Position numbers and translations under genes: made by a program
Notes under the pieces: model-generated
What the model was told of the DNA's origin: nothing
The model's database searches: none
What the model saw: only the letters and a program-made list of their open reading frames with translations
Virus record (IMG/VR): IMGVR_UViG_3300045589_000097
Coordinates: 1-37,199 of that record
DNA length: 37,199 bases
Reading direction: 5' to 3' (one strand)
From: a virus
Shown here: positions 36 through 37,199 of the stretch, piece by piece
Layout: each line of letters opens with the position of its first letter
Numbering within the stretch: the first letter of the stretch is position 1

Positions 36-386
36 TCGGTCAACATGCAAGTGAGCGGCTAACTGAAGGCTGGATTTACGTGTCGTCTTTGGAGTCAGAT
101 AGCTCTCAACTAAAATGATCCGGTAGTTTTCATTCTCTAGAGATTCAATGGCACCTTCACAGCACGCTATATAGTACAGCTCGTCAGCGTGCGATACGAG
201 CTTGTCCTCGGCTTTGTTGCCATAGCTGGGTGACTTTGGCATGCCGTCCATCACGGGGCTTCTGAGCGCTATTTTGGTACGTTGAGCGAGCCGCTTGTGA
301 TGCCAGTAGTTCCCCAAGACCTCTTTGGCGTTTTCAATTGTTTTGTCATGATCAATTGGGCTAAAATATCTCGTTGCTCGCACCAC
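1..386 (-). CDS. arpU: ArpU-family phage late transcriptional regulator, 5' portion (continues 37164->37107; 147 aa in total)
   Basis: GTG at 386 lies 8 nt after AAGGAG. Reading 386->1 then 37164->37107 gives one 444-nt frame ending in TGA. The product (YFSPIDHDKTIENAKEVLGNYWHHKRL ... LQLAAHLHVDRTTLWRQ) has ArpU-like layout and the usual position ahead of the packaging genes. Confidence 0.65.
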   Translation of the reverse strand, partial: MVRATRYFSPIDHDKTIENAKEVLGNYWHHKRLAQRTKIALRSPVMDGMPKSPSYGNKAEDKLVSHADELYYIACCEGAIESLENENYRIILVESYLTPKTTRKSSLQLAAHLHVDRTTLWRQTQEAL

Positions 387-401
387 TGCGTCCACTCCTT
401 A

Positions 402-466
402 TGGTATAATTAAATTTGTAAAAGTTTGGGGAAACGGCGTGCCGTAATGGTGCGCTTTTGTTTTTT
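402..466 (+). ncRNA. Candidate small-RNA unit A1 (extended -10 promoter plus intrinsic terminator)
   Basis: TGgTATAAT at 402-410. Hairpin GCGTGCC 437-443 / GGTGCGC 449-455, followed by T-run 456-466. Contains GTTTGGGGAAAC at 424-435. Confidence 0.35.
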
Positions 467-467
467 G

Positions 468-536
468 TGATATACTTGCTGTTCAAATAATTCGATTTGA
501 TAGACTGAGTCGTCCTGTTAATCCGGGGCGACTTTT
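468..536 (+). ncRNA. Candidate small-RNA unit A2
   Basis: TGaTATACT at 468-476, directly after the A1 T-run. Hairpin GTCGTCC 509-515 / GGGCGAC 526-532, then TTTT 533-536. Confidence 0.35.
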
Positions 537-641
537 GCTATACTACCTTTGGAGATGCTTTCTTATGCGTGTTAACCTTATAAGTTGGGGAACAATCTGA
601 TTCAAGCATCTCCCGCGCGTTGCTTATGTGACGCGCTTTTT
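536..641 (+). ncRNA. Candidate small-RNA unit A3
   Basis: TGcTATACT at 536-544. Perfect 10-bp long-range helix GGAGATGCTT 551-560 / AAGCATCTCC 604-613. Terminator GCGCGT 615-620 / ACGCGC 631-636 plus T-run 637-641. Confidence 0.4.
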
Positions 642-739
642 GGTATACTGTATACGGAGGCCAAATCCTAATCTTTTATTTAATTCACTCTCAATCGTAC
701 GTCTGGCCTCCGGCGCGTCCTTCACCAGACGCGCTTTTT
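620..739 (+). ncRNA. Candidate small-RNA unit A4
   Basis: -35 TTGCTT 620-625, 18-nt spacer, TGgTATACT 641-649. Helix GGAGGCCA 656-663 / TGGCCTCC 704-711. Terminator GCGCGTC 713-719 / GACGCGC 728-734 plus T-run 735-739. Confidence 0.4.
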
Positions 740-747
740 GTTTACAA

Positions 748-828
748 TCATTTTCCTCTTTTCCAGTTAGCCCACGCCCAAATTGCAGCACCTGAGATGA
801 GCAATATAACGGCAATCATATGTTTCAT
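748..828 (-). CDS. Small hydrophobic peptide (26 aa, MKHMIAVILLISGAAIWAWANWKRGK)
   Basis: The ATG overlaps the TGA of the upstream gene (ATGA coupling). One predicted TM segment. It is the last ORF of the early operon. Confidence 0.3.
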   Translation of the reverse strand: MKHMIAVILLISGAAIWAWANWKRGK

Positions 829-1296: not shown

Positions 1297-1668
1297 TCAC
1301 TCCTTCACCTCCAATTTCACGATTTCTCCGGTTTCCTCCACGCGCCAGACACCTAGCAACCATGCAAGGGCAAAAGTGTCAGCATCAAAAGCTATCCACG
1401 CCAAAGCGCCTGTTACTACGGTTCGTGTGATGCCTAGGTCTCTTACCATTCCAAGAACATCAACAAGATCACGATGGTACTTCCGCAATTCTTTGATATA
1501 ATCACCAACCATTTTCGGAATCATCGGCAGATCATCTGGCAAGGCGGCATCATAACGTTTCTTGTACCCATCCAGTGTTTCCCTAGGCCAACCATTGAAG
1601 AACACTTGATAGCCAGCAAGACGGTTCCAAACCGCCTCAAACACGTCCCGCTTCGTCTCATTGCTCAT
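1297..1668 (-). CDS. Hypothetical early protein (123 aa)
   Basis: ORF-track ORF. RBS GAGGTGA lies upstream of the ATG at 1668. Confidence 0.7.
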   Translation of the reverse strand: MSNETKRDVFEAVWNRLAGYQVFFNGWPRETLDGYKKRYDAALPDDLPMIPKMVGDYIKELRKYHRDLVDVLGMVRDLGITRTVVTGALAWIAFDADTFALAWLLGVWRVEETGEIVKLEVKE

Positions 1669-1834
1669 CGTCAGTCACCTCTAACTGTTCCTTGTTGTAA
1701 TCGATGATACGTTTATAGTTGTTGTTCGCCTGCCAGGCGCAATCATACAGACCACACAGATCAAGTTTGTTGATTGCATTGTTAGCGGCATCGATGGCCT
1801 TTTGCGCAGCGTCTATGTCAGCTTTAGTCGTCAT
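1658..1834 (-). CDS. Hypothetical small protein (58 aa, MTTKADIDAAQKAIDAANNAINKL...)
   Basis: Below the ORF-track cutoff. ATG at 1834 is preceded by GAGGTGA. It overlaps both neighbours by a few nt, which suggests translational coupling. Confidence 0.5.
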   Translation of the reverse strand: MTTKADIDAAQKAIDAANNAINKLDLCGLYDCAWQANNNYKRIIDYNKEQLEVTDDEQ

Positions 1835-2369
1835 CGTCAGTCACCTCTTCTTTTTCGCAGTCTTGCAAGCTGTAATGCTCAATCTCTGCTTCGGTGAACT
1901 GAGCCAATGAATCACTTTGGGCTTTGCTATGAAGAAACCATGCTACGGTTCCGGGATGAACCGTAGATCGGTATGCTTGAGCAAAATACTCATGCTTCTT
2001 CTTATCGACAAGCACTTTGTAGACCAGATACTTCTTCTTCACGGTGAAGCCGTTGACGTAAGCATTCATCAGCAGCTCTTCGTCATCATCAGAATTACCA
2101 GTATTATCAGTAATATACTTTGCTGGCCGCGTATAATCGTGTGCACGTTCAACGATTTTGGCTTGTTCCTTGCTCAACAATACCTTTTCAGGCTCCTCAA
2201 CGAGCGTGACAACGTGGCCGCCATGATCACTAACTACGTCTTTAGCATCTTCCTCTTCAGCCGTGGTCGGGCAAGATGCGAAGGTTAATTCAAAGAAGCC
2301 ATCTCGATCTGCAAAGTCCCAGTATTTGCCTTCATCGTTCTTAACCGCGTACAGCTTTTCTTCGCTCAT
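1824..2369 (-). CDS. Hypothetical acidic early protein (181 aa)
   Basis: ORF-track ORF. Its start overlaps the stop of the upstream gene. Confidence 0.7.
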   Translation of the reverse strand: MSEEKLYAVKNDEGKYWDFADRDGFFELTFASCPTTAEEEDAKDVVSDHGGHVVTLVEEPEKVLLSKEQAKIVERAHDYTRPAKYITDNTGNSDDDEELLMNAYVNGFTVKKKYLVYKVLVDKKKHEYFAQAYRSTVHPGTVAWFLHSKAQSDSLAQFTEAEIEHYSLQDCEKEEVTDDDD

Positions 2370-2551
2370 TTTTCGTCCTCCACTTTCTTGATAATCAGTG
2401 GTTCCGGAATATCTACCTTAATGTCATCGCCACGGGTGTTGTGCGATTCCGTGTGCTTGGCCATGTTCTCGTTTATCCATCGGATACACTGAGATTGATA
2501 CTTGGCTCGATAATACTCGGTTTCTGTGTTTAATCCTGCTACTACGTACAT
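2366..2551 (-). CDS. Hypothetical protein (61 aa)
   Basis: ATG at 2551 (MYVVAGLN...) lies 7 nt after GAGAGG. The longer ORF-track start would overlap the upstream gene. Confidence 0.55.
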   Translation of the reverse strand: MYVVAGLNTETEYYRAKYQSQCIRWINENMAKHTESHNTRGDDIKVDIPEPLIIKKVEDEK

Positions 2552-2562
2552 TTGTGTGCCTC

Positions 2563-3027
2563 TCATTTCGCGCTGACTGACTTCACAGCCTGATCTGAAT
2601 AGTCCTTGATGCTCTGCGCGTCTTTGATTGCCTGTGATAATTCATTGTTTGCCTGTTTGGCGGCTTCTAACTGTGATGTAAGGTCGTTGATTGTCTGTTG
2701 CTTAGCATCGACCTCAGCCTGTTTCTGGGCAACTGCTTGCTGGCCTTCAACGATCTTTTGCTGAATCTGGGCATCTTTGTTTGCCATGTCGTTTCCATAT
2801 TGCTGTTTTAGGGCCGCATACTGTGCCTGCGCGTCAGACAACTGATGTTGCAAATCGGACAAGCTAGATTTTGAAGCGTGAATCTTAGCCGTCAGCTTGT
2901 CGATATTGTTTTTGGTCTCCACGATGTTCTGGTGACCTTGCCAAACATTGTCGGCAATGGTGGTTGCACCGGCCCCAAACATAAGTCCTGCTAAAACAGT
3001 TACTGTAAATGTCAATTTTTTATTCAT
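2563..3027 (-). CDS. Secreted or membrane-anchored Q/A-rich coiled-coil protein (154 aa)
   Basis: N-terminal signal/anchor MNKKLTFTVTVLAGLMFGAGATTIA, followed by heptad-like Q/A/K-rich sequence. RBS AAGGAGAAAAAATC lies before the ATG. Confidence 0.7.
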   Translation of the reverse strand: MNKKLTFTVTVLAGLMFGAGATTIADNVWQGHQNIVETKNNIDKLTAKIHASKSSLSDLQHQLSDAQAQYAALKQQYGNDMANKDAQIQQKIVEGQQAVAQKQAEVDAKQQTINDLTSQLEAAKQANNELSQAIKDAQSIKDYSDQAVKSVSAK

Positions 3028-3039
3028 GATTTTTTCTCC

Positions 3040-3405
3040 TTAATCGATCTCTTCGACTTCAACTCTCGGATTAGCTTTGTCAATAAAGAACCGATCTCGC
3101 AGTTCTACAATGTGATCCCAGTTGTCGTTTTCTAAAAATTCAGCCTTTTGCATGCCGTCGAAGATAAACTTGTGCTGAAACGCGATGTTGTCCGGGTCTG
3201 TTCGCTTGTCATACCAGTACCAGTCGAAACTTAGAGGTTTTCCCCATTGAAATTTCACGCCCTGATTCATCGCTTTTCTAACAGCCAACATTACCGTTTC
3301 CGTTGCTTGTTTCTTGACTTTTGCTCCGCCGAACATATTGCCTCGTTCAACCTTGATGTACTGATTAAGAGTCATGAGGGGCAATGGAATAATGATCCTG
3401 TTCAC
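3040..3405 (-). CDS. rusA: RusA-family Holliday junction resolvase (121 aa)
   Basis: Size, position after the replication genes, and the RTDPDNIAFQHKFIFDGM...ENDN acidic motif pattern are typical of RusA. Confidence 0.6.
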   Translation of the reverse strand: MNRIIIPLPLMTLNQYIKVERGNMFGGAKVKKQATETVMLAVRKAMNQGVKFQWGKPLSFDWYWYDKRTDPDNIAFQHKFIFDGMQKAEFLENDNWDHIVELRDRFFIDKANPRVEVEEID

Positions 3406-3656
3406 GCTGGTTTCACGTCCTTCAGATAGTATTGATGTTGCTTGCCATCAACCATTTCAACCGTTGTGATTAGCTCTTTGGGTGCCTTGCCATCAAAAGC
3501 AACTGGCTTGTTGATGTCTTGACGTTCACCTCTGGCGTTGTATCGCTCGATTCTGATGATTCGTGCCACACCGCCAATATCACGCACGCCCATGAATACT
3601 CGATCAGGAACCATAACCAGATCACCAACCATCATTTTCGTTTTAATTGCTTGCAT
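3402..3656 (-). CDS. Hypothetical protein (84 aa)
   Basis: ATG at 3656 lies 8 nt after AGGAGGAA. The upstream part of the ORF-track frame lacks an RBS. Confidence 0.6.
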   Translation of the reverse strand: MQAIKTKMMVGDLVMVPDRVFMGVRDIGGVARIIRIERYNARGERQDINKPVAFDGKAPKELITTVEMVDGKQHQYYLKDVKPA

Positions 3657-3702
3657 TTGAAGATTCCTCCTGTAGTTTCTTGTATTATTCCTCGCTAAAT
3701 AT

Positions 3703-4152
3703 CTAACGACTCGCAATCTCTTCATGGCCGTTGTTGCGGCGGGGCAACTTGATATCAAACTCGCTTGCCACTCGTCTCACGAACGTTGTTGACTTCCCGA
3801 TCTGTTTTGCAACCTCTGTTAGTGTTTTGCTCTTGCTTGCCGCCTCAGAAACTTGTACTGCATACTTCTTACGGTTAGCTTCCCCGCGTTTGTTTACAGC
3901 CTTGATGCTGCTGATCAGTGCGACTGAAGGCATATCTCGATTATCAACACCGGCTACCGCACGTTTCTCGACAATCGCTTTCTTTGATACAACGATCCGG
4001 TTGTTGAACGCTTGCTTTTCGATTTTTGAGAATGCTTCGCTTTCAGAAATGCCTAGCATTGCTGCATTTTCGTAGCGCGTAATCAATTCAGCTTTGAAGT
4101 CGCGCCACACTTTGTCGCCTTGCTTGTATAAACGGACTGTTACTTGTGTCAT
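3703..4152 (-). CDS. Hypothetical protein with a C-terminal HTH-like segment (149 aa)
   Basis: RBS AAGGAGAG before the ATG at 4152. C-terminus contains KTLTEVAKQIGKSTTFVRRVASEF. Confidence 0.65.
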   Translation of the reverse strand: MTQVTVRLYKQGDKVWRDFKAELITRYENAAMLGISESEAFSKIEKQAFNNRIVVSKKAIVEKRAVAGVDNRDMPSVALISSIKAVNKRGEANRKKYAVQVSEAASKSKTLTEVAKQIGKSTTFVRRVASEFDIKLPRRNNGHEEIASR

Positions 4153-4398: not shown

Positions 4399-4427
4399 TT
4401 GTATGGCGCATGCATTTTTGATATACT
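4399..4427 (+). promoter_or_regulatory. Sigma-A-like promoter for the plus-strand islet
   Basis: TTGTAT 4399-4404, 17-nt spacer, TGaTATACT (-10 at 4422-4427). It is followed by the inverted repeat TTACAGG 4432-4438 / CCTGTAA 4451-4457, a possible operator. Confidence 0.45.
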
Positions 4428-4481
4428 AAATTTACAGGCTACTGTAATGACCTGTAATAAATTAGATGGGGGGGACTATTG

Positions 4482-4601
4482 ATGGCAAAAACGAAAACTA
4501 GTGTTCGCGGAACCCCAACTAAGAAGATCGTTGTTGTAAAACCGTACACTAAGTCAAACGGAACTCGTGTCGGCGGTCACCGGCGTTCAACGCCAAACTA
4601 A
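4482..4601 (+). CDS. Small highly basic protein (39 aa, MAKTKTSVRGTPTKKIVVVKPYTKSNGTRVGGHRRSTPN)
   Basis: ATG at 4482 lies 7 nt after GGGGGGA. It has its own promoter and terminator. Below the ORF-track cutoff. Confidence 0.4.
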   Translation: MAKTKTSVRGTPTKKIVVVKPYTKSNGTRVGGHRRSTPN

Positions 4602-4624
4602 TCTTCAACAGTCTTTAGAATCTC

Positions 4625-4665
4625 CTCCTTCAGGGTATAAGGTTTCCCTGAGGGAGATTTTATTT
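4625..4665 (+). terminator. Intrinsic terminator or attenuator between the small basic ORF and the DUF2513-like gene
   Basis: Stem CTTCAGGG 4628-4635 / CCCTGAGG 4646-4653 (extendable), 10-nt loop, then TTTTATTT. Confidence 0.5.
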
Positions 4666-8023: not shown

Positions 8024-8242
8024 TCACTTTGCCGCCTTTCGTGATAAACTTGGGCTATAAATTAATTTGCTTTGCTTTTCATTTCCCGTGGTTGCCGCCA
8101 TGGGATTTTTTTGTGCGCATTTATTGAGCATGATCAAGCTAAGTCGAAACATCCAATCCCAGCCACGATCTGCATGTCCTTTGTAAATGAGGTTCTCGAC
8201 CTGATCGTGCACGTCTTGCCAACACTCTTTTGTATCTCGCAT
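8024..8242 (-). CDS. Hypothetical early protein (72 aa)
   Basis: ORF-track ORF with RBS TAGGAGAAAAG. Confidence 0.55.
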   Translation of the reverse strand: MRDTKECWQDVHDQVENLIYKGHADRGWDWMFRLSLIMLNKCAQKNPMAATTGNEKQSKLIYSPSLSRKAAK

Positions 8243-35098: not shown

Positions 35099-36247
35099 TC
35101 ACACATAGTAAATGGCACGGGTATCATGATCGCTGTATTCGACCAGCTCAAACGTTTTGTGAGCAACCACGCCAATGTCATCAGTCCACTTGTCGGTTGG
35201 CTTGCGTGTCGACACTTGACGCTGAACAAATCCGCCTAGGTCTTTGCTCATCTCTGAATGCAGATGCCCCGTGAACAGCTCGCGATTCTGTGCTGTGCCT
35301 AACATGAAGCCGAACTCATCTAGGTATTTTGCAAGGTAGTTGTTCTTACCCTTGTCTCCGTGAGTGGCGCCAATGAAGTTATGGCCTAACATTGTGCCTT
35401 TGTAATGCTTCAGTGATATATCCCAAGTGATGTTCGACTGGTTGCTGTAGGCACGTTTCAATAGACGTGCAAACATATATCCAACTGACGGGTCGTGGTT
35501 ACCTGGCGCATACATGACCTCACACTCATTGGCGTTCTTAATGATTGCTTCAATCAGTGTCTCGAAGTATTGCTCCATTTCGTTCACAGTCTCGCCCAGA
35601 TCGGTTGTTTCGAGCTGTGTACCCTTTGCTGTGGTCGAGTTGATGTTATCCACATGAGCCAGATCACCGCCCAGAATGAGCAATATTTTGGCGTAGTGGC
35701 CGCGTTGAATGATCTCTAGTTGCCGTTTAAGCGATTCAGCATAGATGTCAAACGTGTGACCGTTGAAATGCGTGTCGAAAGCAGGAATGACCAGATAGCG
35801 ATCTGATTCCACAAAAATAGGAGCCTTAGCTTGGTATGGCTCCTTGTGTGTGATGATGTCATTCATCAATGATTCATATTGTTCCGCTTCAACTAACGGC
35901 CTGATTTGTATCTTGCTCTGGTACAACGTTGCTTCAGGCGTCTGCTTCCAGAAGTTGCTTGTGGCACGTACAAGTTCCCACTTAGTGTAATCATACCCGT
36001 GAGCTTCCAGAACCTCTCTAGGCGTCATTTTGTGGCCTCTGACAACCTTTAGAATGGTTTCACTGGACTGTGTACCGTCTGAATCGTATTCGTTCTTGAC
36101 TGGTTTTTGGAACTCGATGCCAAGCCGTTTTGCTTTGCCTTGAAGCGCGTCGTAGCTAATTCCTAGCTTGTCGGCCGTTTCTCGTCTAGTAAAGCCTTCA
36201 GAGGCGAGCTTCCTAATGTCACCGATCTGTTCATCTGTCCATTGCAT
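35099..36247 (-). CDS. N-terminal HTH fused to a calcineurin-like metallophosphoesterase (382 aa); first gene of the late operon
   Basis: HTH FTRRETADKLGISYDALQGKAKRLG. Phosphoesterase motifs DTHFNG, GGDLAH, GNHD, GATHGD, GHLH occur in canonical order. RBS GGAGG. Confidence 0.75.
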   Translation of the reverse strand: MQWTDEQIGDIRKLASEGFTRRETADKLGISYDALQGKAKRLGIEFQKPVKNEYDSDGTQSSETILKVVRGHKMTPREVLEAHGYDYTKWELVRATSNFWKQTPEATLYQSKIQIRPLVEAEQYESLMNDIITHKEPYQAKAPIFVESDRYLVIPAFDTHFNGHTFDIYAESLKRQLEIIQRGHYAKILLILGGDLAHVDNINSTTAKGTQLETTDLGETVNEMEQYFETLIEAIIKNANECEVMYAPGNHDPSVGYMFARLLKRAYSNQSNITWDISLKHYKGTMLGHNFIGATHGDKGKNNYLAKYLDEFGFMLGTAQNRELFTGHLHSEMSKDLGGFVQRQVSTRKPTDKWTDDIGVVAHKTFELVEYSDHDTRAIYYV

Positions 36248-36360
36248 CTACTCGCCTCCGAAAATATAATGTCCGTGAGCAGTTTGATGACGCTGCTCAC
36301 ATTCTCATGAAGAACTTCCCGAGTTCTTAAGCCCTCGGATTCGGCCCCGAGAGCTTTTTT
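36242..36360 (+). ncRNA. Candidate small-RNA unit B1
   Basis: TTGCAT 36242-36247, 17 nt, TATAAT 36265-36270. Hairpins GTGAGCAG 36275-36282 / CTGCTCAC 36293-36300 and AAGAACT 36310-36316 / AGTTCTT 36322-36328. Terminator 36331-36354 plus T6 at 36355-36360. Confidence 0.45.
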
Positions 36361-36361
36361 G

Positions 36362-36475
36362 TTGCTTAAAAAATTTCGATGAGTTAGAATTAAATTGTTC
36401 CCAACAGATACTCATTTTCACTCCTCTGTAATACCCTATCTTTAGGCTCTCGGCCCCCAACCGAGGGCTATTTTT
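36362..36475 (+). ncRNA. Candidate small-RNA unit B2
   Basis: TTGCTT 36362-36367, 17 nt, TAGAAT 36385-36390. Terminator GCTCTCGG 36446-36453 / CCGAGGGC 36461-36468, then TTTTT 36471-36475. Confidence 0.45.
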
Positions 36476-36611
36476 GTATCTTCTATAAGGAATGTGCTAA
36501 TATATATGCGTGAGTAGTGTCTTTTCTCCTCCAAGTCAACCGCTGCTGCTCACACAAGTATTTCGTTTTTTCATTCTTTTGGCTCTTGGACTGGTCTCTG
36601 AGGGCTTTTTT
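36474..36611 (+). ncRNA. Candidate small-RNA unit B3
   Basis: TTGTAT 36474-36479, 18 nt, TGcTAATAT 36495-36503. Stem GTGAGTAG 36510-36517 / CTGCTCAC 36546-36553 with CTCCTCC in the loop. Terminator 36582-36605 plus T6. Confidence 0.45.
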
Positions 36612-36612
36612 A

Positions 36613-36717
36613 TTCCGATTTATTGCTACATGTGTTATACTCTTTTTCGGTACCGTTGTTTCACCTCAGTAAACACCGGTAGCTAGGCCCTCAGTTAATC
36701 GCTCAGAGGGCCTTTTT
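36613..36717 (+). ncRNA. Candidate small-RNA unit B4
   Basis: TTCCGA 36613-36618 (weak), 17 nt, TGtTATACT 36633-36641. Stem 36651-36661 / 36671-36681. Terminator GGCCCTC 36686-36692 / GAGGGCC 36706-36712 plus TTTTT. Confidence 0.4.
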
Positions 36718-36724
36718 GTTGCAC

Positions 36725-36757
36725 AAAAATAGCACCTCACCGTTTGGCGGAGTGCTA
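36725..36757 (-). terminator. Minus-strand intrinsic terminator closing the arpU / tRNA-like unit, back to back with the B4 terminator
   Basis: The minus strand reads TAGCAC...GTGCTA (36757-36752 / 36735-36730) followed by TTTTT (36729-36725). Confidence 0.45.
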
Positions 36758-36799
36758 TAGTCTGGTGCCTACTCCTATGGTTTACCAGACTTGATCCAA

Positions 36800-36876
36800 T
36801 GCAACCGGCGGGATTTGAACCCGCGACACCGACGCACGCGCGAACTATAGTCGGTGAGCCTATCTCAATCGGTTGC
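36800..36876 (-). tRNA. tRNA-like element (77 nt) with an aberrant anticodon arm; possible pseudo-tRNA or intron-bearing tRNA
   Basis: Perfect 7-bp acceptor GCAACCG/CGGTTGC. D arm TGAG-ATAGG-CTCA. T arm GCGGG-TTCAAAT-CCCGC. The anticodon stem CCGAC/GTCGG encloses a 16-nt loop, so no anticodon can be assigned. Confidence 0.4.
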
Positions 36877-36939
36877 TGCTCGCTCTCCCAGTGTCAGATG
36901 GGGTCATCGCAAGATGTGTCCGGTCGCTAAACTGGACAA

Positions 36940-37004
36940 TGTGGCATGCGGGAATCGAACCCGCCTGACTATCTCAGCCAGTCCTCATTGCCACGCCTTG
37001 CCAC
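36940..37004 (-). ncRNA. Second, more degenerate tRNA-like module
   Basis: T arm GCGGG-TTCGATT-CCCGC. Acceptor ATGCCAC pairs with a duplicated GTGGCAA (A-A mismatch). D-arm-like CTGA-GATAG-TCAG abuts the T arm. No anticodon arm. Confidence 0.3.
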
Positions 37005-37106
37005 AGCTTTATCATCACTGAGGCTCGGAGGAAAAATGCGGTGTCTCAGGTTTCTCACCTTTGGCACAATACAATCATATGACGGAAAAGCGTGTTTTTT
37101 GTTGCA

Positions 37107-37199
37107 TCATTGTTGCACGGATGTTGCAACTAGTTTCACTAGCGGACATATTTCAGCAAAAGCATAGAGAGCTTCTTGTGTTTGTCGCCAAAGGGTCGT
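37107..37199 (-). CDS. arpU: ArpU-family regulator, 3' portion (37165-37199 duplicates 1-35)
   Basis: Same frame as 386->1 across the circular junction. Ends ...AFAEICPLVKLVATSVQQ with TGA at 37109-37107. Confidence 0.65.
   Translation of the reverse strand, partial: TTLWRQTQEALYAFAEICPLVKLVATSVQQ
37165..37199. repeat. Terminal direct repeat, identical to 1-35
   Basis: Exact 35-bp match to the start of the window. Confidence 0.9.

Follow-up and report, generated by a model that had tools for sequence, protein, structure and literature searches.

Tandem predicted small RNA genes oriented against arpU in a temperate Lacticaseibacillus phage and its relatives

Four predicted small transcription units between arpU and the early operon

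We analyzed positions 1 to 37,199 of the IMG/VR virus record IMGVR_UViG_3300045589_000097 (the window, by which we mean this whole stretch of DNA), with a focus on positions 402-748, where an array of opposite-strand transcription units fills the 350-nt gap between arpU, the gene of a late activator, and the final gene of the early operon. The first 35 bases of the window recur at its end, indicating that it represents a circular genome of 37,164 bp, and BLAST placed it among temperate siphophages of Lacticaseibacillus (casei/paracasei/rhamnosus) such as R3.1, iLp84/PLE3, Lrm1, phiAT3 and A2. The minus strand carries nearly all genes in the window, including those that neighbor the array, so the plus-strand units described here are antisense to the path that leads from the early operon to arpU. 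Translation over the 35-bp terminal overlap showed that ArpU is a 147-aa protein whose gene spans the circular junction and ends at ~37108; its start agrees with the annotated coding sequence (CDS) of phage R3.1, and tblastn searches with ArpU matched ArpU-family regulators.

The array consists of four predicted, independent plus-strand small RNA (sRNA) genes, A1 to A4, of ~45, 56, 91 and 86 nt, each of which would be transcribed by the host sigma-A RNA polymerase from an extended -10 promoter to an intrinsic terminator of its own (Table 1). Every unit opens with a TGNTATAMT box. Eight matches to this motif were found in the window, all on the plus strand, compared with 1.85 expected, and none of 100 shuffles gave eight. 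The four terminators fold at -11 to -15 kcal/mol and are each followed by a T-run, and the boxes of A2, A3 and A4 overlie the T-run of the preceding unit's terminator. When the whole window was scanned with a purpose-made terminator detector, eight of the 25 plus-strand matches at or below -10 kcal/mol fell within this array and a sister array on the other side of arpU, which together occupy ~2% of the window. These results confirm the boxes and terminators that had been picked out in a first-pass annotation made from the letters alone.

Units A3 and A4 share a closing helix that brackets a large loop. In A3, GGAGATGCTT (551-560) pairs with AAGCATCTCC (604-613) to form a perfect 10-bp helix, while in A4, GGAGGCCA (656-663) pairs with TGGCCTCC (704-711). 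Both helices had been noted before, although the 3' arm of the A3 helix is corrected here and the A4 helix, previously given as 8 bp, extends to a perfect 9 bp when drawn as 655-663/704-712. Both are part of the minimum-free-energy fold of their RNA (z-scores of -6.0 for A3 and -5.2 for A4), and A2 also folds more stably than expected (z-score -4.9). The A4 start site was placed by the fixed 6-nt spacing between box and GGAG. The A1 terminator stem contains two G.U pairs. Read on the opposite strand, the G.U pairs in the terminator stems of A1 and of A4-type units would turn into A.C mismatches, so they point to selection acting on the plus-strand RNA.

In the direction of arpU, no terminator and no good promoter were found within 402-748, consistent with the earlier proposal that read-through from the early operon is the only evident route for arpU expression. 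The accompanying claim that the minus strand of this region lacks both promoters and terminators held for terminators, but one weak promoter-like match was detected (694->665). Tandem Repeats Finder detected no tandem repeats in the array, with only the A3 and A4 terminator modules resembling each other (76%), and a type III toxin-antitoxin (ToxI-like) array was rejected as a candidate because there are no tandem direct repeats of a short unit. The coding potential of the units is limited to open reading frames (ORFs) of 6-11 codons, none of which is common to the subfamilies described below; as judged by reading the family variant sequences, indels break them.

Table 1. Coordinates of the predicted units and of the features that surround them in the window.
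Feature	Position	Strand	Detail
A1 extended -10 promoter TGGTATAAT	402-410	+	1 nt from the complement of the arpU Shine-Dalgarno
A1 predicted sRNA, ~45 nt	418-466	+	18-nt single-stranded 5' end, terminator hairpin 436-456, U-run
A2 extended -10 promoter TGATATACT	468-476	+	on T-run of A1 terminator
A2 predicted sRNA, ~56 nt	483-540	+	presumed start; 5' hairpin 483-500, terminator 508-533
A3 extended -10 promoter TGCTATACT	536-544	+	on T-run of A2 terminator
A3 predicted sRNA, 91 nt	551-641	+	closing helix, 43-nt loop, terminator 615-636
A4 extended -10 promoter TGGTATACT	641-649	+	on T-run of A3 terminator
A4 predicted sRNA, ~86 nt	656-741	+	closing helix, 40-nt loop, terminator 712-735
arpU translation start	384-400	-	Shine-Dalgarno AAGGAG 400-395; GTG start 386-384
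Gene of 26-aa hydrophobic peptide (MKHMIAVILLISGAAIWAWANWKRGK), final early-operon gene here	748-825	-	convergent with A4
Early operon	9589->748	-	
B array, four predicted sRNA units	36262-36720	+	terminators 36329-36356, 36445-36469, 36581-36606, 36685-36713
Late genes	from 36247	-	

Transcripts of homologous units and their distribution among phages

Sequences from the supplementary tables of an mDOT-seq small-RNA catalogue of Lacticaseibacillus paracasei BL23 lysogens were mapped onto the window (PMC8220740). The 5' end of sLCB1264.9- corresponds to window position 418, 7 nt past the A1 box (97.8% identity over 45 nt), and that of sLCB573.5- falls exactly on position 551, the first G of the A3 GGAG, again 7 nt past the -10 box. 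A read-through transcript, sLCB573.6-, matches 437-538 (94% identity) and thus runs from the A1 terminator through the A2 terminator, while A4 is represented by sLCB573.2- (639-739, 87% identity) and by sLCB1264.7-, whose 3' end corresponds to position 741. The 3' ends of the BL23 RNAs lie in U-runs. These homologues are 86-98% identical to the window over the matched parts and are located upstream of arpU in two BL23 prophages, whose unit content (five in the 572-kb prophage and four in PLE3) differs from that of the window. Since the BL23 RNAs had been size-selected at 50-500 nt, the 45-nt A1 monomer would have been lost; several RNAs cover two or three units, indicating that the terminators leak.

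In BL23 lysogens, homologues of the A array were present at ~400-2,300 counts per million (CPM) and those of the sister array at up to ~10,000 CPM, compared with ~36-120 CPM for sense-strand fragments. RNAs of the GGAG type were confined to the two prophage arrays. The catalogue holds 307 sRNAs, in which the sLCB573 and sLCB1264 entries are classed as "antisense" or "intergenic" (PMC8220740); the available portions of the article list the RNAs and tie none of them to prophages, arpU, arrays or a function. Taken together, the BL23 transcripts of homologous units, whose 5' and 3' ends agree with those expected in the window, support the prediction that the A units are transcribed sRNA genes pointing away from arpU, as the first-pass annotation had proposed.

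We next compared 92 loci with a Lacticaseibacillus-type arpU, comprising 79 of 80 IMG/VR contigs, nine GenBank phages, three genomes and the window, which together represent 82 distinct upstream regions. IMG/VR was a far richer source than the genome contigs, where the ArpU search gave only three loci. The promoter-on-terminator layout was found in all 92, but the number of units was not kept: arrays ranged from one to five units in mosaic combinations. A1 was present in 91 of the 92 (the exception being locus L038) and A4-type units in 72, with A2 (21 of 92) and A3 (18 of 92) in a minority. Loops, promoters and terminators are reshuffled among phages, which marks the region as a mosaic hot spot. 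Over the 82 distinct arrays, the gene immediately upstream was variable too, with a small helix-turn-helix protein being the commonest.

A3, A4 and several other subfamilies share a common design, in which TGNTATACT is followed after exactly 6 nt by GGAG(GCC)..., a 35-45-nt loop, ...(GGC)CUCC, 2-3 nt, and a GCGCG-type terminator. Over 41 distinct bodies, positions 1-4 of the closing helix were invariant (GGAG/CUCC), while positions 5-7 were paired in at least 90% of cases through several compensatory pair types. This covariation gave 161 paired cells, compared with a mean of 123 and a maximum of 144 in shuffles. Loop sequences were conserved inside subfamilies. A search of genome contigs with the pattern TGNTATACT-N6-GGAGGCM returned only chance hits from unrelated phyla among the matches listed. 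Separately, GenBank records of related phages carry small "hypothetical protein" CDSs on the arpU-sense strand that overlap units in L003 (iLp84, 3599-3739), L004 (3443-3613), L005 (3578-3748) and L007 (3587-3808); these CDSs are not conserved between phages and are probably miscalls.

The A1-type unit beside arpU is conserved across phages of the Lactobacillales. In distant ArpU phages, whose ArpU proteins are 25-35% identical to that of the window and whose DNA cannot be aligned with it, an opposite-strand TGNTATAAT abuts the complement of the arpU Shine-Dalgarno and is followed by a short, terminated predicted transcript. This unit was found in Enterococcus phages phiFL2A, phiEf11 and EG-TP1, in L. 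reuteri LR1 and in S. thermophilus P9853; phage LM 4-11-1 has the box with no clear terminator after it. Among IMG/VR sequences of the Enterococcus type, all 33 distinct upstream regions contained the box, always 19 nt from the start codon, and 31 of the 33 had a terminator; among those of the Streptococcus type, all 62 contained it, 14-18 nt from the start codon, and 59 of the 62 had a terminator. The RNAs predicted in these two groups are ~28-142 nt long. Besides L038, S. oralis OlisA2 and the satellite Javan537 were exceptions. Because the sequences within each group are related, the independent evidence amounts to recurrence over roughly five or six lineages. In LM 4-11-1 (L098, ~1100-1170), the opposite-strand TGATATAAT and a sense-strand TGATATAAT ~35 nt upstream of the arpU Shine-Dalgarno make up the two arms of a 12-bp inverted repeat, giving a face-to-face promoter pair.

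The sister array, the late leader and neighboring features

The proposal that arpU is bracketed on both sides by opposite-strand units was borne out by the B array, whose four units run antisense to the late operon's long leader. B shares the promoter-on-terminator layout of A, as had been suggested, but structurally its units are of another family, marked by a GUGAGCAG-type helix at the 5' end instead of GGAG...CUCC. Three BL23 RNAs matched it: sLCB577.3- (36277-36360), sLCB577.2- (36397-36474), which was verified by Northern blot (PMC8220740), and sLCB577.1- (36510-36610).

Within 37067-37132, three TGCAAC direct repeats (GTTGCA on the plus strand at 37102, 37112 and 37124) overlap the final arpU codons and the stop codon. 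They are similar to the repeats that ArpU is described as binding in phiFL2A, and a TATGAT -10 element follows them on the minus strand. The 5' end of BL23 sLCB574.1+ corresponds to window position 37067, which is probably the start of the late promoter's transcript; a start there would give a late leader of ~820 nt before the ORF from 36247. This leader holds two tRNA-like elements on the minus strand (36797-36876 and 36940-36994). The first is a cloverleaf whose acceptor stem measures 7 bp; it includes a T arm (GGGUUCAAAUCCC), and its "anticodon" loop is oversized at 16-18 nt. The second combines an acceptor stem with a single hairpin and a T arm and lacks a D arm. Neither was called by ARAGORN, which found no tRNA or transfer-messenger RNA (tmRNA) in the window, and Rfam gave only sub-threshold tmRNA-type and mascRNA-type matches to them. 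In the second element, the 3' end of sLCB574.1+ lies exactly past the acceptor stem, as though the RNA had been processed in the manner of a tRNA, and iLp84/PLE3 has a genuine tRNA-Ile at the position of a tRNA-like element. Still within the leader, upstream of the B array and the first late ORF, lies a strong sense-direction intrinsic terminator (36729-36758, minus strand; -15.7 kcal/mol, then TTTTGTGC), which polymerases transcribing the late genes would have to pass by read-through or antitermination; in BL23, sLCB574.4+ stops at the counterpart of this terminator.

No Rfam family matched at the gathering threshold anywhere in the window; a permissive search of 1-1100 gave only matches with E > 2, and 36200-37199 gave noise. 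The large RNA classes GOLLD and ROOL, suspected from the prophage and tRNA context, were thus unsupported by the Rfam searches.

The arpU gene is itself a mosaic. Its N-terminal ~250 nt (386->136) are 93-100% identical across phages, the remainder (136->37108) occurs as differing C-terminal alleles (~40-70% identity in phage A2 and L085, unalignable in others), and conservation returns in the final 45 nt, which bear the TGCAAC repeats. That the arpU 5' end is conserved had been considered as a sign of an upstream element for A1, a reading that was dropped because the entire N-terminal half of the gene is conserved. At the end of the early operon, a gene for a 60-aa membrane protein (1007->825, minus strand) is ATGA-coupled to that of the 26-aa peptide (825->748), variants of which recur beside A4-type units in several relatives.

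Two further plus-strand features lie in the early region. A cassette at 4419-4660 consists of TGATATACT at 4419, a 39-aa ORF encoding a very basic protein (4483-4602, MAKTKTSVRGTPTKK...) and a strong terminator (4625-4656), and looks like a moron or defense-type insert. A terminator at 8084-8105 followed by T7 (region 8050-8111) shares homology with sLCB1258- of BL23, in its 3' half; sLCB1258- is a 55-nt antisense sRNA from the early region of prophage PLE3.

Candidate roles of the array in arpU control

ArpU ends the replication module, is needed for late-gene transcription and lysis, and binds direct repeats just past its own gene. How late activators of Gram-positive temperate phages (ArpU, RinA and other Ltr proteins) are silenced in lysogens and timed once induction sets in is poorly understood beyond read-through of the early operon, for which repressor control has been demonstrated with the related RinA of phage 80alpha (PMC3753634). 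We judge the chances to be about even that the A units are constitutively expressed sRNA genes acting as antisense in cis, which would damp leaky expression of arpU both by colliding transcription and by pairing between the RNAs.

Under this proposal, the array would act as a conditional barrier, or threshold filter, on arpU. A polymerase sitting at or firing from the A promoters would meet polymerases heading for arpU head-on, and a polymerase at A1 would have a footprint that takes in both the ribosome-binding site of arpU and its start codon. The sRNAs would pair perfectly with the read-through transcript to form duplexes of 45-90 bp, expected substrates of RNase III, whose cutting would sever arpU from the early mRNA. 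Weak, leaky transcription in the lysogen would thereby be quenched and accidental lysis avoided, while after induction strong early transcription, amplified by genome replication, would overrun the filter and switch arpU on. The extra units A2-A4 would raise the threshold, and the A terminators would stop the antisense transcripts before they reach the early genes. Consistent with a cis role, a duplex-energy scan against the minus-strand transcriptome identified each unit's own complement as its sole strong pairing partner in the phage. Low-level sense RNA (sLCB1264+, ~36 CPM) was present across the homologous PLE3 array, while a continuous early-to-arpU transcript is presumed. In BL23, the sense fragments sLCB1264+ and sLCB577+ have ends that fall within terminator loops.

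Several observations weigh against this proposal. The A1 RNA ends ~17 nt short of the arpU Shine-Dalgarno, making a direct block of ribosome binding impossible, and neither the conserved GGAG...CUCC helix nor stable RNAs would be needed under pure interference. Arrays of one to five units all seem viable, which suggests that the extra units are dispensable. The sense-strand sLCB1264+ was flagged by the authors of the catalogue as having its own promoter inside a unit (PMC8220740), so arpU may not hang wholly on read-through. The start site is inferred for both A2 and A4, and in two homologues of the A4 type the 5' end lies 21 nt before GGAG. The BL23 data come from pooled, uninduced cultures that are silent on induction.

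Control of this kind has parallels in classical phages: in lambda (paQ and OOP), P22 (sar) and coliphage 186 (pR/pL interference), expression of a developmental regulator is reduced by opposing promoters or by a short RNA from the antisense strand; lambda paQ targets the late regulator Q. Those cases are single units that overlap a coding sequence or promoter, whereas the present arrays have up to five tandem self-terminated units, all of them clear of the arpU reading frame, occur in phages of Gram-positive hosts and lie beside the gene of an ArpU-type activator, not of an antiterminator. In the non-contiguous operons of Staphylococcus aureus, an oppositely transcribed gene lies within an operon, the operon mRNA is fully complementary to it, and the two regulate each other in an RNase III-dependent manner; in contrast, the embedded elements here are non-coding and multiple, and the continuous sense transcript is a presumption. 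The term non-contiguous operon is used in bioRxiv 10.1101/2025.02.27.640495, and OOP and P22 sas are mentioned in PMC7067206. The BL23 RNAs sLCB573.2-, sLCB573.5-, sLCB573.6-, sLCB1264.7- and sLCB1264.9- remain the closest likeness, being direct homologues with the same promoter-on-terminator layout and 5' ends.

The main alternative is superinfection exclusion, in which the constitutive A (and B) sRNAs would act in trans on related phages that enter the cell bearing the same units, pairing with their arpU and late-operon leaders to block the invader's late program, while the lysogen's own induced prophage would escape through dosage or timing. The high expression of the RNAs in BL23 lysogens fits this idea, as do their stability and structure, which suit action in trans. 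The units are also mosaic and shuffled among otherwise near-identical phages, as an arms race predicts, and constitutive opposite-strand genes in lytic modules are typically defense genes (bioRxiv 10.1101/2025.02.27.640495). A precedent is STnc6030 of Salmonella prophage BTP1, an antisense RNA that excludes BTP1 without impairing induction (PMC7067206); like the A units, it lies opposite lytic genes, is high in lysogens, has perfect complementarity to its target and is tolerated by its own prophage. STnc6030 is nevertheless a single 786-nt RNA antisense to structural-gene coding sequence, unlike an array of 45-90-nt RNAs in the untranslated leader beside a late activator. Moreover, an invader could escape by merely losing units, which is hard to square with a near-universal, cross-genus A1, and the constant placement of A1 next to the arpU Shine-Dalgarno speaks for action in cis. 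We consider exclusion possible but rather unlikely; it is compatible with a threshold filter on arpU.

It is unlikely that the units are trans-acting sRNAs, a kind of non-coding "moron", whose A3/A4 loops or A1/A2 5' tails would pair imperfectly with other host or phage mRNAs, for example through anti-Shine-Dalgarno-like CUCC/ACUCC motifs, with adjacency to arpU being incidental to an insertion hot spot. The structured 5' body followed by a terminator is the typical build of a Firmicute sRNA, the mosaic character of the region and the conservation of loops within subfamilies would be expected, and the loop of many members contains ACUCC, complementary to the GGAGU of the arpU Shine-Dalgarno. 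A4 of the window, however, has AAUCC instead of ACUCC, and complementarity to the rest of the phage genome is at chance level (11-13-mers only). The arpU translation-initiation region ranked only ~1,500-3,300 among 7,433 windows for all four units, and the confinement of GGAG-type sRNAs to the two BL23 prophage arrays likewise speaks against a trans role.

A type I toxin-antitoxin system, in which A4 would be the RNA antitoxin of the convergent 26-aa peptide and overlap its 3' untranslated region, is very improbable. The layout resembles bsrG/SR4 and txpA/RatA of Bacillus subtilis prophages, where an sRNA converges on the gene of a small hydrophobic peptide so that the 3' ends of the two overlap: the peptide gene converges on A4 with its stop codon ~12 nt past the A4 terminator, and related peptides or a 49-aa membrane protein occur in some relatives. 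Yet the peptide has no promoter of its own, being coupled to the preceding ORF, and it is inconsistently linked, standing beside a minority of the 82 distinct arrays, where the adjacent gene is usually a small helix-turn-helix protein or another gene. Membership in this class is thus unsupported, and it would leave A1-A3 and the conservation beside arpU unexplained.

The least credible reading is that no RNA function exists, the hairpins and T-runs being one-way insulators or DNA structures and the boxes chance products of AT-rich DNA, or that the units mimic CRISPR repeats as RNA anti-CRISPRs; TATAAT-like words are indeed frequent in AT-rich intergenic DNA and the helices, being inverted repeats, let either strand fold well, but the box count exceeds that of all 100 shuffles, homologue 5' ends lie 7 nt downstream of boxes and one sister (B) unit is confirmed by Northern blot. 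As to mimicry of a CRISPR repeat or tracrRNA by A2, a suspected likeness was not significant when compared with the Lacticaseibacillus type II-A repeat recovered from L. chiayiensis (21 copies), the only CRISPR type compared; the best p value among 16 tests was 0.012 (0.18 for A2), and none was significant after multiple-test correction.

Although the existence of the RNAs is already on record in a public catalogue (PMC8220740), our literature search found no functional study of them and no account of mosaic arrays flanking arpU, of the GGAG...CUCC family, or of a cross-genus A1-type partner of arpU. Specialists probably would not expect this cross-genus conservation. A broader and more tentative proposal is that an opposite-strand, self-terminated mini-gene, with its extended -10 element abutting the arpU Shine-Dalgarno, is an ancient, obligatory partner of ArpU in Lactobacillales phages (Lacticaseibacillus, Limosilactobacillus, Enterococcus and Streptococcus) and may serve as a general RNA- and collision-based "safety catch" on lysis, with the mosaic arrays of the L. 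casei group perhaps acting in addition as an antisense library that excludes related superinfecting phages.

The arrays may offer ready-made strong promoter and terminator parts for these hosts. If the proposed damping of arpU is true, they would constitute a compact, conserved RNA-level control point directly on arpU, one that would be relevant to dairy and probiotic Lacticaseibacillus, where spontaneous prophage induction is a practical problem.

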